This document shows positions 24,333 to 50,089 of a stretch of 64,000 bases of DNA, one piece after another; positions within the stretch are counted from its first letter, which is position 1; each line of letters begins with the position of its first letter. The stretch is taken from assembly GCA_963693365.1 (NCBI GenBank), contig CAVNZM010000015.1:5836624-5900623 (forward strand), written 5' to 3'. Under the pieces are notes generated by a model. The model saw only the letters and a list, made by a program, of their open reading frames with translations, was not told the origin of the DNA and made no database searches. The stretch comes from Amoebidium appalachense. Taxonomy: Eukaryota > Protista > Ichthyosporea. A program made the position numbers and the translations under genes.

Positions 24333-24349
24333 CATCAGCAATCTTGCGC

Positions 24350-25830
24350 GAACATCCAAAACATATCAAACCCATCTAGGATATGCAACTGTATATTAAT
24401 GGATAGCGTTTAGATATCCACACGATATGTAGGATGGTTTCAGTCGAACATATCAATACCATCCACTGGATATATACAACATGTCTATTTCCTCCTGACC
24501 TCCAACCAATGTCCAATATATATGTAGTTGCATGCTTAGATAGTGATCAAGATATTGCACCCCCAATAGATATCACATATGGATATCCATGCTGTACCTC
24601 CATTGGGCATCGTTGTGATATCACATATCTGGATATGCAATCAATGCATATATGGATACATAAGTGCACCTATAATGGCCATTAAATACACATTAGATGC
24701 ATATGAATGCTGACATCAAACGCCACCTGGTTGGTTCGGCATGTATTGGATATTAGACAGATGCCCACAATGGATATCGACGCTGGATATCCAATGATGG
24801 AATTTCAACTGCATTCCTCCGTTGGATAGCTATATGGATATGTAACATTCTGGATAATCCATTTGGATGCTTAGCTGTATATTAGACTGGATCAGTAACA
24901 ACATATCCAATACATGACTGACAAGAATATCCGATCAAAATCCCCATACAGATATCAAGATATCCCTGTAGCAAGACATGCAATACACCTAACAAGTATA
25001 TCCAATGGCGGTCTATAGTGGATGTCCATATTGGATATCCATTATAATATCCAGATGGATCGCTAATACATGTGCACTTGACCCCAACGCTAATGAACAA
25101 TGCATGCCCATATTGGATACGTTCCATGGATATCCATTCCGATATCCAGATACATACGCCTTTGCTTGTCCACTAGACCCTCCTATAATAACCAAAGCAT
25201 GACGATTCCACATATCCAATTAGATCACCAAATATGGCTCTGACGGTTATCCATATACACCCGCACGCTGATGTCCAATAGACAATCATACTAAGACACA
25301 ATGGATAGCTATACTGGTTATCTAGGCTCAACATCCATACAGATATCTTGATACACCTGCATTTGCCCATCCACTAGACCCTAATACTAATATCCAATGC
25401 ATGACGAAAATACATATCACAATAGACCCCCATACCGATCTCCAACGGCTATCCATATGCACCCCTGCTTACCCATCCAATATATGTCGATATTCATATA
25501 CAATGCATCACCATTCACAATATCTAAGCTTAATATCCAACATGATATGCGGATACATATACACCTACATATGCACTCGGCACCTATGTTGATACCTAAT
25601 GCATGAAAAACAAAAATATCAAAGTAGATGCCCAACCTAATGCCTAACACTTAACAAACATACATGTTTTGGGATATCCATTTACACCCGTATCTAATAC
25701 TTAAAATATCACTATAACAGCTATCTGGGCTGATACCCATACAGATAGCCAGATACATCTGTAGCTACATCTCTAGGGTATATCCACTGGATTAATTGCA
25801 TAATTTTGGTACTGTATATCTGCAACATAT
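24350..25830. repeat. Left subterminal region rich in GGATAT/ATATCC motifs
   Basis: Dense short motifs in both orientations, no credible ORF; mirrored by 49090-50070. Confidence 0.7.
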
Positions 25831-28513
25831 CTATTAGTGTGTATTTGATGTGTAATAAGGCCTTTCCGGATAAACATTATACATCTTTACCGATCCATCC
25901 ACTGCCAGTCCCGCTATAGGAAAGTAGGTACCTACGAGTGACGACCGGGTTACATTATGAACTGGTAGGGCCGGCCGATGGACGATTTTCACCGATTTTT
26001 TGTGGAATGTGTTTTGCTTCTGCAGGAATTTTGCCCATGCGGCGTGCGGTCCTACACTGCACCGATATTTCGGGTCCGATCCGCGGGGAATCGTGGATCG
26101 TGAGCCTCGTATGTTTGGGTTGAACCGCACGCACCTGCGGGCAGCACTTGATTGGTTTGGGCCGCACCCAGGAATGCGACCGAGGCACACATCCTTTGAT
26201 GCTTGAACTGACACGTGCCAGTGGGCAACGATTAGTGCAGGTGAATGTGCGTGACCAAGAGCAAGCACGCAAGGAGTCTAAGTTTCGCGCACGCTACCGT
26301 AGTCAAACTGCGTGCGCCGCTCTGTCAACTTTGTCATTGCAACAGAGGTTGTAACATAGAGTCATTATTTCCTTTACGACCAGGTCATCTGCCGGGGAGA
26401 ACTTCCTTTCCTTTGTCATAAGTCCACTCCTGTTGTTCTCGAAGTTCATATCGTTTGTCAGTTATATACAAGACGTGGTGTGTTTTTTTGACACCCTTTT
26501 TTAATCACTCTACTTCTGCGTTCAATTCGAACCGTGCTACCTTCTATGTTTTTTAAATAAAAATGGCGGCGAAACATTCTGGACGTGTGCACTCCTTGCC
26601 ACAACAGGCAGGTTAGTTTACCCCCCCACCCCCCCCCCCCCCCCCCCCCGGCCCCCTCCCGCCCCTACTCTGAAGTCCGCAGCCTCCTTCCCCAGTCCCT
26701 CTTCGCCTCTCCACCCTCTTCCTGCCCTCGCGCTGTACTGGCACGCCTGCAAGGCCAGTGTTTGGTCTTCGTTTAGGACTGCTGTTCATCTTTTCTCTTC
26801 ATTGACTCCTTTCCTTTTTTTTTTTTCAACACATGGCTTTCATTCTTGCATCGGGAAGGAGTCTTTTTATGGTGTTTGTGTCTGTGTATGAGTATTCGAG
26901 CCCATACAGGTATTTTCAGGCAGTAGTTGCACTTGACAGCCTCTCCTTTGCATGCATTCATGGCTTTATAATGAAACGATAATAATGTGTACCCAAGCCT
27001 TGCCTAACATTCATGCACGTCTTAATACCATACGTTATCCATAGAAATACATGCCAATTTTTTCTTCCTTTACTCCACACAATATCACTCACACGTACAC
27101 ACACACACACACACACACACCACACGCCACTCTACACCTGTGTGCACCGTCCTGTGTCAGTGGGTGTTATCAATTAAGCACTACGGGGGAAAAGGGAGGG
27201 AAGAGGGGAGGGGGGAGGGGGGGGGGGGGGGGGGGGGGGGGGGGGAAACAGACACCGCCCACACACACACACACACACACACACACACACACACACACAC
27301 ACACACACACACACACACACACACACACACACACACACACATCCACCCATCCATCCGTTGTGCCCCCTTCTGCATGTTTCCTACATCCCCTTCTCGATCC
27401 AGGCCCCTTCTTTTTCTAACCTTTTCCTCCTTCTCTTCCTGCTTCCCTTTCTTCTTCTCTTATTCTTGCCCTTTCACCTTCTCCCCCCCCCCCCCCCCCC
27501 GGTTCCCGACCAGATAAAACAACCCCCCCCCCCCCACACACACACACACCCACACACATATACATACACATACACATACGCACACTCTATCTCCCTTTCT
27601 TCTCTCTCTCTCTCTCTCTCTCTCTCTCTCTCTCTCTCTCTCTCTCTCTCTCTCTCTCTCTCTCTCTCTCTCTCTCTCTCTCTCTTTCTCTCCCTCTCTC
27701 TCTCCTCTCTCTTCTCCTTTCTCGTCTCGATCTCCCCCCCCCCCCCCCCACACACACACACACCTCTCTGTCTCTCTCCCTCGCTTCTCCCCCTCTCGCT
27801 CTCCTCCTCCTCCCCCCCCCCCCCCCAACTCTAAATCACATACACACACATACACGTAAGCTCAAACTTGTTGTTCCCGTGAAGTAATAGAATATTGTGT
27901 TAGTGATAGCTGTTTAAAATGAACGTGTATACATTAAGCTGTGTTTCCGCGACTCACCCACAAATATCATTTTCTAGAAGTACCAAAGAATCCGAAGTGA
28001 AAGTAGTGCCTCTAACATATTATATTCTCATCTATAGTTATTTTATGCAAATATTCGTTTCGTTAAAAGATTTTCTCTTTCGAGGGGGGGGGGGGGGGGG
28101 GGGGGGGGGGGGGAGGGAAGGTATAGAGGGGGGGGGGGCGTGCGCCGTCAAGAGGCGCCGGATGATGAGACGGCGAATGCACCGGGGCGGGCGCGCGCGC
28201 ACCACCCGTAGAGAAAAGAGTAGAACGACATCGTCGATCGGCGGCCGACTTTATACCCATGTAGTAGTGATCACAGTCGTGCTTTGTAGGGCACGATTTT
28301 CTAATGCAGGGGTTTGCAGTGATCGCATAACCATATGATGGCTAATGACCACCATTGATAAATAATTTATGTCTGGCCTAATATCTATCACATAAGTAAT
28401 ACCCCGGTTCCACAAATCAAGGGGAAGAAATAGATAAAAAAGAGGAAGAAATATATATATATATATATATATTATATATATATATATATATATATATATA
28501 TATATAGTCTGCC

Positions 28514-48853: not shown

Positions 48854-49089
48854 TACGTCTTATAGTAGTAACAAAAAAACATGTGTAGTTTGTAAGCAAG
48901 AAGGTCACTGGACCCTGTAATAGTTCATAATCAAAAGTAAGTGTTGGATTGTGTGTCATATGCTCCTGGTGAGCATGACTTAGATAAAACTGGTCATGCT
49001 CCTGTGGGGCATGACGTGTACATAAAGACTTGTGCTGCCGTCGTTGAGCAAGTGCCAGATCCCAACGGGGGGGGGGGGGGGGGGGGGGG

Positions 49090-50070
49090 GAGTATTGCAT
49101 ATCCAATTGGGCATTATTTATATATTAGACTACTCATCGAGATATATATTTAATGGACTGCTCAATTATATCAAACTGGATATCTAGTGCATATCCAGAC
49201 ACGGAAGTGATGATATCCGATTGGATATCACTCAAATATTAGAGTAGTCCTTAGGATATACATGCAACGGATGAGTATTAGATATCACTGTGATATAGAA
49301 TACATATCCAGACACGTTGTTCGGATTTCTGCCTATATGTCTATTTATATATATAATATATGCAAGGGCCGATATCTAAAGGGTGTCTTTTGGTCGTCTA
49401 TCACATCCATTTTCGTTGTTCATTTACTGATCCAGTGCATATATACTGGGATGCATGTTGGATATCTATGCTTTGGTCTACTTGGCAACTATTATGAGGT
49501 CTATTGGTGACCTGACTGTATATAGTCACTATAGGTATTCTATGCCTATATACATAGCTATCTGTATATCTAATGAACCGCATTTTCGGTAATAAATCTA
49601 TGCACAACCTATATGTATTGCATATCAAATTACATCTCTTTTGTATCAATTACATATGATTTAGGTTACCCACAGCATATCAATTGGATCTCGATTGTGC
49701 ACCTTTTATGCATGTTATATATATATATATTACGTATCATAATGGATAGGGTTTTCGGCAGGTTTCCAGTCACTGGATACCTTCGTTGCATATCCAGTAT
49801 ATATGTTTTGCATGTGTATTTGCATATCTAGTGTTCGATATCCACTGGATATCATGTCTCCCGTGGATATCTAGTGGATCCCTAACAGTAGTTATCCAAT
49901 GGATATCAGGGTTCTAACAGATATCTATATACATATTAGCCGTAGATATCCAAGATTAATATCCATTTATATTTACATATCTTAAACCCATGAACTGGAT
50001 GTAGGGTTATGTTCAGGATGGGTTTGAGTATATGGATATCTTTAATGTATCTTTTATGGGTTCCGGATGT
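49090..50070. repeat. Right subterminal GGATAT/ATATCC-rich region
   Basis: Same motif density as 24350-25830, abutting right TIR. Confidence 0.7.
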
Positions 50071-50089
50071 TTCGGCAAGATTGCTGATG

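Follow-up and report, generated by a model that had tools for sequence, protein, structure and literature searches.

In a window of 64,000 nucleotides from Amoebidium appalachense (the whole stretch of DNA that we analysed), we identified a single PlavakaB cut-and-paste transposon that carries a KDM4-like JmjC gene. We further propose, with somewhat less than even confidence, that this 20.9-kb PlavakaB with its likely captured KDM4-like exon encodes an enzyme that would remove repressive methyl marks from histones on copies of the element itself.

Ends, insertion site and contents of the element

The element spans positions 24333..50089 (25.8 kb); a nested retrotransposon takes up about 4.9 kb, and the core measures 20,863 bp. 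It is bounded by terminal inverted repeats (TIRs) of 15 bp, one on the plus strand at 24333..24347 that begins with CATCA and one on the minus strand at 50075..50089 with a terminal TGATG. The two agree at 15 of 15 bases, and imperfect similarity extends to about 27 bases. Both exact matches of the 15-mer in the window are these TIRs, and one further site has 2 mismatches (shuffle mean 0.18). The dinucleotide AT flanks the element as a target site duplication (TSD) at 24331..24332 and 50090..50091. Termini of the form 5'-CATCA..TGATG-3', a TSD of 2 or 3 bp and the motifs C(2)C and H(3-4)H are hallmarks of PlavakaB in the parts of Kojima 2025 (PMC12730594) available to us, and the element has both such termini and such a TSD.

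The insertion target was a 49-bp satellite array on the plus strand (23787..24332, resuming at 50092-50385). An uninterrupted unit of this array (50153..50361, plus strand) equals the joined flanks of the element, matching them exactly for 133 bases on the left and 75 on the right (208 bp) around a single AT at 50285-50286. This empty unit is a neighbouring repeat of the satellite and not an allele from another genome. Since one satellite unit is interrupted and its intact twin is exact, the whole 25.8 kb, minus later insertions, came in through one cut-and-paste event. Thus, the perfect 15-bp TIRs, the AT duplication and the empty-site copy near 50275 described in the initial annotation all hold. 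A 17-bp TIR without TSD was rejected because the empty unit retains one AT.

Both subterminal arms are dense in TGGATAT / TGGATATCCA motifs, with 23 occurrences in the left arm (24348..25900; 2.0 in shuffles, maximum 5) and 13 in the right (49100..50074; 1.1 in shuffles, maximum 4). The element thus holds its own short motif arrays, as VANC-type systems do; such arrays in transposon arms are also the usual sites for transposition proteins.

The transposase gene lies on the minus strand (28514..37036). Our model comprises 1035 aa in 9 predicted exons (37036-36479, 36286-36131, 35682-35318, 34774-34529, 33314-32801, 32219-32062, 31471-31267, 30735-30506 and 29190-28514), with introns that are all GT-AG and phase-consistent; in the window as it stands, a G run of exon 8 contains a single +1 shift, which was read as X. 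Pfam profiles, proposed as a check in the initial annotation, recovered both families: Plavaka (PF18759) in two exons on the minus strand (E 7.9e-19 and E 1.6e-7), JmjC on the plus strand (E 1.9e-9). Six other transposase exons, each scanned alone, gave no PF18759 match (exon 8 was outside the scan). The motif order D..D..C(2)C..H(3)H..E is intact (D431, CHKC at 451, HAGDH at 689, E near 711), with D and E residues that were picked without alignment to a reference. The C(2)C and H(3)H motifs lie after D number two and before the final E, as in PlavakaB. A word-index protein search with exon 5 returned no relative, a weak result given that the same kind of search missed the JmjC relatives. Contigs of runs X2 and X3 had near-zero cover at 36312-37323, the 5' end of the transposase gene, although a gap in contigs proves nothing.

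With the nested retrotransposon removed, the divergent start codons of transposase and cargo gene are about 1.1 kb apart in the core. The picture in the initial annotation of one element with a minus-strand Plavaka transposase and a divergent plus-strand JmjC gene agrees with Pfam on both strands, but it had missed the nested retrotransposon. This is a tyrosine-recombinase (DIRS/Ngaro-type) element of about 4.9 kb on the plus strand (~37619..42512, ends +/- ~3 bases), identified by Pfam, with ORFs for a gag-like protein, a reverse transcriptase (RVT_1, E 3.4e-18) and a tyrosine recombinase (YR; Phage_integrase, E 5.4e-8). Its contig depth was about 590x that of the element interior (run X1). 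We do not count the YR gene among the Plavaka cargo, since it belongs to this high-copy retrotransposon. Transposase, cargo gene and nested retrotransposon are the only contents of the element. An Rfam scan gave no match, none of 10 window ORFs was present as an exact sequence in the searched protein collection, and neither protein search nor TIR pattern revealed related loci in viral and metagenome contigs. The CpG observed/expected ratio was 0.65-0.90, and CGC loss was not consistent.

The JmjC exon and the predicted cargo gene

The JmjC exon (43452..44472, plus strand, acceptor uncertain) is intronless and holds the whole KDM4-like core. Its KDM4 iron ligands H188/E190/H276 are kept as H195/E197/H281. 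The zinc site C234/H240/C306/C308 is kept as C238/H244/C311/C313 and is absent in 8 KDM5-type matches. Among the 2-oxoglutarate ligands, Y132 and K206 are kept as Y127 and K212, and N198 is replaced by Ser, as in 16 of 148 relatives; equivalents of KDM4A K241 and R309 are also present. D135, which in KDM4 contacts the H3 arginine at -1 (residue roles from KDM4A, PMC6010108), corresponds to His130, a position that is Asp in 70 of 87 relatives.

The structural model (pLDDT 73.9) aligned with residues 20-332 of KDM4A at Z 22.5 and rmsd 3.8 over 273 residues; single-sequence fold prediction was unusable (pLDDT 32). All 37 Foldseek matches listed were KDM4, and a viral fold library returned distant 2OG/JmjC folds only (best E 4e-6, TM 0.37). 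The KDM4-like identity claimed in the initial annotation is supported by the catalytic and zinc residues and by the fold. JmjN, found in 30 of 88 alignment rows, was not matched in the cargo by Pfam or a custom HMM; the model aligns from residue 17 onward to KDM4A residue 20, with pLDDT of 38-64 there.

A full HMMER search found 862 relatives at E<=0.001, against none in word-index protein searches at near and longer lengths, which are evidently weak. The Atlas assigned JmjC clusters to the exon with recognition under its threshold. The closest relative (P0002) is 30% identical over 296 aa and resembles the cargo in that its N-terminus is basic and the JmjC core after it is uninterrupted. No named Amoebidium protein was among the 20 matches looked up. 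A FastTree phylogeny of 149 cores grouped the cargo with long-branch sequences (18 tips, 0.93). It belonged neither to the KDM5-type clade (9 tips, 0.998) nor to the clade that holds three JmjN+PHD KDM4s (15 tips, 0.90). Demethylation of H3K9me3/2 or H3K36me3/2 is the hallmark activity of KDM4/JMJD2 enzymes. From its residues and modelled fold, we predict that the JmjC core functions as an Fe/2-oxoglutarate lysine demethylase.

The gene model places a predicted exon 1 with a basic, SPKK-rich N-terminus upstream (43058..43344, plus strand, donor uncertain). In the window as it stands, a G run of this exon (43123-43127) contains a single +1 shift, and here the contigs of X2, X3, X12 and X14 are all shorter by one base. 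Downstream, predicted exons 3-7 (45113-45585, 45979-46305, 47128-47337, 47735-47908 and 48287-48853, plus strand) encode 583 aa that are in phase with the JmjC exon and match no known family; exons 2-7 together form a 923-aa frame without stops. A likely 3' UTR follows (48854..49041, plus strand), since a presumed-RNA contig of a 97% relative ends in poly(A) at 49041. Neither a domain scan nor the Atlas found a known DNA-binding family in the C-terminal part, and Atlas leads for exon 4 were all below 0.9.

Third-position GC (GC3) is 0.48 in the JmjC exon (164/340) versus 280/394 in neighbouring exons (p=3e-10); it is 0.71-0.74 in the flanking exons and 0.66-0.79 in exons 3-7. Because its codon use differs from that of its neighbours, the JmjC exon was likely captured, and the same difference suggests that it may have been slotted into a pre-existing accessory gene.

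Splicing of the JmjC exon to exons 3-7 is predicted. Its donor at 44472 is a phase-matched GT followed by a C run, which also follows 6 of 13 other modelled donors, and read-through past 44472 meets poly-Pro and a U-rich tail. No RNA run is recorded as containing the cargo region, and the contigs of X14, X16 and X21 are RNA by presumption. The presumed-RNA contigs listed include no joint 44472-45113 or any other joint out of the JmjC exon, and presumed-RNA contigs continue unspliced over 44525-45311. The exon 6-7 intron is spliced in abundant presumed-RNA contigs whose source is the 97% relative, in which the sequence 5' of exon 6 is one absent from the window. In the spliced JmjC gene described initially, the JmjC domain lies within one exon, and the splicing to later exons is predicted.

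Function and origin of the cargo

In DNA runs X1-X3, contig depth over JmjC was about that of the transposase, with most listed variant sites in one contig, and the right arm was 3.5-11 times deeper and showed structural variants. Contig depth is not copy number; the pattern suggests many element ends and few JmjC-bearing copies. Among the variants listed, 4 of 20 in exons 6-7 were synonymous, against an expected 20.5%; for the JmjC exon the figures were 1 of 5 and 23.5%. At this low power, the cargo variants listed look neutral, with no purifying selection seen. The Plavaka with a KDM4-like gene proposed in the initial annotation is supported by its termini, TSD, conserved residues and fold, but the self-encoded anti-silencing system is backed neither by an RNA joint nor by purifying selection among the contigs and variants listed.

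If the element does erase repressive marks, the JmjC exon would be spliced to exons 3-7, and the C-terminal part, as a candidate binder, would attach to the TGGATAT arrays in the arms and so aim the enzyme, by analogy with CACTA TnpA, which binds its own element, and with VANC. H3K9me2/3 or H3K36me2/3 would be the candidate substrate. A more specific version holds that a KDM4-type demethylase from a giant-virus KDM4-like pool was fused to the element's own DNA-binding accessory protein, as a self-targeted eraser, and that JmjC capture by Plavakas is recurrent across eukaryotes; we think this unlikely.

The erasing function competes with passive, Pack-type capture, in which a KDM4-like exon of host or viral origin, from some gene family, entered one or a few copies and now drifts without benefit. 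We regard this as a real possibility, if a minority one. The foreign codon use of the exon, the low and flat contig depth over JmjC, the neutral-looking variants and the change from Asp135 to His all fit it. Potential donors exist as well, since DNA and presumed-RNA contigs contain other JmjC genes with about 84% identity over 75 bases, and TET/JBP genes were transferred passively among transposons according to the accessible part of Kojima (PMC12730594). However, the 1-kb exon has no stop, keeps all iron and zinc ligands and is in phase with five later exons. Moreover, identity to the nearest known relative is just 30%, so the reading frame must have been maintained somewhere through long divergence, and in DNA runs labelled as three species the contigs differ little over the JmjC region (0-9 differences each).

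Two separate genes are the next alternative: the JmjC gene would stand alone, and an accessory gene with an ATG near 45157 would follow downstream. The enzyme would then be active but untargeted, or act on a substrate other than H3K9, and any benefit would be general derepression. Contigs of X14/X16 (presumed RNA, one sample) span predicted intron 2 contiguously with exon 3 and are far deeper over exons 6-7 than over the JmjC exon; the GC3 break at the JmjC exon and the substrate-groove change at Asp135 point the same way. Yet these contigs differ from the window, one continues unlike it, and they may come from other loci. In addition, the exon closes with a phase-matched GT donor and the C run typical of this genome, and read-through would give the poly-Pro and U-rich tail instead. 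We consider two genes improbable. Finally, the low apparent copy number and the single copy examined would fit two Plavaka ends that happen to enclose a host JmjC gene and never moved with it as a unit, but the interrupted satellite unit and its exact intact twin largely refute this, and we give it very little credence.

Comparison with known systems

Transposon-borne epigenetic enzymes are already known, and for the Plavaka-JmjC pairing we found no published case. The initial annotation had called the pairing undescribed, which agrees with our search, but the concept is less new than it implied: published Plavaka cargo includes TET/JBP, SET, 6mA-methylase and 2OG-oxygenase genes (PMC12730594 and bioRxiv 10.1101/2025.02.11.637652, as far as accessible), and viral KDM4-likes are known. 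In the literature searched, no defined DNA transposon carried a gene of the histone-demethylase type; a Plavaka-JmjC pair could be described in subscription journals, in Repbase Reports or in Supplemental Table 6 of the Bostrychia study, on elements with accessory genes. Among the texts searched, only Sarre 2024 (PMC11244446) has both 'Plavaka' and 'JmjC', unpaired in the portion available.

The available text of Kojima 2025 (PMC12730594) describes PlavakaB of Agaricomycotina, including families with TET/JBP cargo proposed to escape silencing; its main text has 0 occurrences of 'JmjC'. The element shares with them the CATCA..TGATG termini, 2-bp TSD, C(2)C and H(3-4)H motifs and a 2OG-dioxygenase cargo, here a histone-demethylase-type JmjC, theirs a DNA-oxidising TET/JBP. 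In the red alga Bostrychia, giant Plavaka families with PAG1-3 make up a third of the genome (bioRxiv 10.1101/2025.02.11.637652, partial text; no JmjC in the main text); they carry other enzymes, whereas our element is seemingly low-copy.

In Amoebidium appalachense itself, KDM4-like JmjC genes on endogenised giant viruses were proposed as anti-silencing tools against H3K9me (Sarre 2024, PMC11244446, as available). Theirs and ours are divergent KDM4-type JmjC genes without PHD/Tudor on a selfish element, but their carrier is a virus insertion and ours a transposon without the marks of a giant-virus insertion. The same source describes 'Plavaka giant repeats' as intron-poor tyrosine-recombinase clusters, with JmjC unmentioned in the part seen; our locus shows that YR genes within a Plavaka span may be those of a nested retrotransposon, a point that matters for the interpretation of these repeats.

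Compared with the human KDM4A and KDM4D/E and yeast Rph1 cores (PDB 2Q8E, 2W2I and 3OPT), the cargo shares the fold, Fe triad, Zn site, Y132, K206 and K241, and has Ala at the 288 position like the 2W2I chain. It is 23% identical and differs in having an insert of 11 residues ahead of F185, Ser for N198, His for D135, no JmjN detectable by sequence, no PHD/Tudor and a predicted C-terminal part of no known family.

With its exact ends, a candidate binding motif and a compact catalytic exon expressible by itself, the locus makes enzymatic self-erasure of heterochromatin by a transposon directly testable. Plant VANC has a sequence-specific anti-silencing effect that was shown experimentally, as summarised in citing papers, and is not a JmjC enzyme; our element is known from sequence. 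Both combine a transposon-borne accessory gene with the element's own short motif arrays, a likeness in how they would work only. If the more specific version above, which we think unlikely, were true, the PlavakaB cargo would be an enzymatic, self-targeted remover of heterochromatin marks and thus the histone-level counterpart of plant VANC.

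Element boundaries, transposase and neighbouring repeats

The element is delimited by a perfect 15-bp inverted pair (24333-24347 and 50075-50089), the only exact matches of the TIR 15-mer in the window, where 0.18 matches would be expected even with up to two mismatches. AT adjoins the element at both ends, and the insertion target is a 49-bp satellite: the joined flanks match an intact satellite unit at 50285-50286, with identity over 133 bases on the left and 75 on the right. We thus recovered the TIRs, AT duplication and empty site described in the initial annotation. Since the flanks rejoin to the sequence of an intact unit, the whole span came in by one cut-and-paste event. 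The termini and target site duplication also agree with those given for PlavakaB in Kojima 2025 (CATCA..TGATG, TSDs of 2-3 bp; PMC12730594). The element is a real PlavakaB with KDM4-like cargo. The motif TGGATAT was enriched in both arms, the subterminal regions inside the TIRs (left, 23 occurrences versus 2.0 in shuffles; right, 13 versus 1.1). Outside the element, a 3.3-kb array at 19100-22390 (43-bp unit, inverted sub-units, higher-order periods of 335 and 463 bp) and the 49-bp target satellite have a ATTATATTCGCT core in common.

The transposase gene runs from 37036 to 28514 on the minus strand in nine exons, all GT-AG and phase-consistent. Pfam Plavaka was matched by two of them, and the 1035-aa product contains D, D, C(2)C, H(3)H and E in that order, the assignment of the catalytic D and E being putative. 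In the window sequence the frame ends at residue 793, past the catalytic core, because a G run in exon 8 carries a +1 shift. Transposase introns hold duplicated blocks of 97-98% identity (31550-31797/34958-35205 and 33637-33788/34011-34162), the first pair including the arm motif.

A retrotransposon with reverse transcriptase and tyrosine recombinase, overlooked initially, occupies 37619-42512. Without it the element measures 20,863 bp, and the divergent transposase and cargo genes have their starts some 1.1 kb from each other. Other copies lie at 1-2173, ~11748-16169 and 50481-59362; full or partial, there are at least five in the window, some head to tail and 88-99% alike. In sequencing run X1, contig depth over the retrotransposon was about 590 times that over the element interior, depth not being equal to copy number. 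Elsewhere in the window, another spliced gene with microsatellite introns lies on the minus strand at 5200-10900; its GGDL..C..C stretch resembles a DDE transposase, and six pieces of the gene gave no Pfam match above cut-off. At 60295-61149 lies an integrase core (rve, E 6.8e-9) that seems to be flanked by introns, and a chromodomain-like stretch was judged by eye near 61350-61480.

A KDM4-like catalytic core

The entire catalytic core is contained in one exon (exon 2, about 43452-44472). Against PDB, phmmer matched JMJ14, KDM4A-E and Rph1 (E 2e-11 to 3e-8) and, more weakly, KDM5s; full HMMER searching found 862 relatives at E<=0.001. Compared with 148 of the listed matches, the equivalents of KDM4A H188, E190, H276, K206, W208, C234, H240, K241, C306 and C308 were kept, as were those of Y132 and R309 (roles from PMC6010108). 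The N198 equivalent is Ser, as in 16/148 relatives; that of D135, which in KDM4A grips the H3 arginine preceding the target lysine (PMC6010108), is His, versus Asp in 70/87 relatives. These two substitutions matter. The predicted model of the core (pLDDT 73.9, 88-row alignment) superposed on KDM4A residues 20-332 with Z 22.5 and rmsd 3.8 over 273 aligned residues. Sequence searches of the cargo protein found no JmjN, and the model is weak in that part.

The KDM4-like label first given to the gene thus holds for matches, iron- and zinc-site residues and modelled fold. In a FastTree phylogeny of 149 cores, the cargo protein fell outside both the KDM5-type clade and the canonical KDM4 clade, amid long-branch sequences; we therefore say KDM4-like and do not claim KDM4 membership. 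Its nearest relative among the matches listed was P0002, a JmjC protein from Logan (30% identity over 296 aa). Two further relatives, P0019 and P0032, fuse a divergent KDM4-like JmjC to a Ulp1 protease domain, and one more alignment member carries a BED finger. Ulp1 and BED domains occur commonly in DNA transposons, which hints at further JmjC genes carried by transposons.

Cargo gene structure, copies and transcripts

The earlier picture of a minus-strand Plavaka transposase and a divergent plus-strand JmjC gene stands as to both genes; splicing of the JmjC exon is predicted only. Predicted exons 2-7 join in a stop-free frame of 923 aa, and a C run follows the donor at 44472, as in 6/13 of the other modelled donors. 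No family was matched in searches with exons 3-7. Because GC3 of the JmjC exon (0.48) differs from that of exons 3-6 (0.71, p=3e-10) and exon 1 (0.74), we infer from composition that an older accessory gene acquired it as an insertion. In exon 1, the G run at 43123-43127 contains a +1 shift; contigs of four runs (X2, X3, X12, X14) are each one base shorter over this stretch and one X1 contig ceases to fit at 43125, so the shift is likely an assembly error. The N-terminus (43058-43130) carries SPKK repeats resembling histone H1 tails, a possible nuclear-localisation or DNA-binding segment.

Part of 42900-49000 was present in 16/24 listed runs, six of which we analysed, all as contigs. Depth over JmjC was similar to transposase depth, and the variation at most sites came from a single contig; the right arm was deeper, from 3.5x (X1) to 9-11x (X3), with internal variants. 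The pattern suggests that ends are numerous and copies with JmjC few, depth again not equalling copy number. A short stretch of cargo intron 4 (46366-46700), several-fold deeper in both DNA and presumed RNA contigs, is probably a small dispersed repeat.

In X14 and X16, which stem from one sample and are presumed to be RNA, 47909-48286 was spliced out, and X14 showed poly(A) at 49041. This transcript comes from a 97% relative that carries an insertion of 21 bases and, upstream of exon 6, 29 different bases that are absent from the window. Among the joints listed none leaves the JmjC exon, and contigs cross 44525-45311 unspliced. X14, X16 and X3 also contained further JmjC genes, with about 84% identity over 75 bases. 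Two separate genes, with an enzyme that is untargeted or of different specificity, would be a close rival to a single fused product, though an unlikely one.

Synonymous changes made up 4/20 listed variants in exons 6-7 (20.5% expected; two exon 7 changes in one codon) and 1/5 in the JmjC exon (23.5% expected), and these small, partial lists gave no sign of purifying selection. Passive capture of the JmjC exon is likewise a close rival, little less likely than the reading favoured below.

Proposed function and known systems

The reading we tentatively favour, at somewhat short of even confidence, places the cargo at the level of the family: joined to a protein that binds the arm motif, a working demethylase would keep the element's promoters clear of repressive histone methylation. 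For the anti-silencing idea of the initial annotation, anatomy, KDM4-like residues and modelled fold are shown; splicing, targeting, substrate and benefit we infer.

Among the papers listed, literature searches found no transposon-borne JmjC. Sarre 2024 (PMC11244446) was the sole one of them with both Plavaka and JmjC, and the parts available of PMC11512509, PMC12344493 and PMC9036480 hold no such case. Transposons with epigenetic-enzyme cargo are already known, and the KDM4-like cargo is a variant of these, its function predicted from sequence and its copy-level evidence weak. Fungal Plavakas carry TET/JBP (Kojima 2025, PMC12730594), and red-algal ones carry SET, 6mA-methylase and 2OG-oxygenase genes, for which self-modification was proposed (bioRxiv 2025.02.11.637652). 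In Amoebidium, Sarre 2024 (PMC11244446) reports JmjC-only KDM4-likes in giant-virus insertions, with anti-silencing proposed, and Plavaka giant repeats apart from them. In gene content that genome is similar to the present locus. For the Amoebidium KDM4-likes the carrier is a giant-virus insertion, whereas here it is a PlavakaB element.
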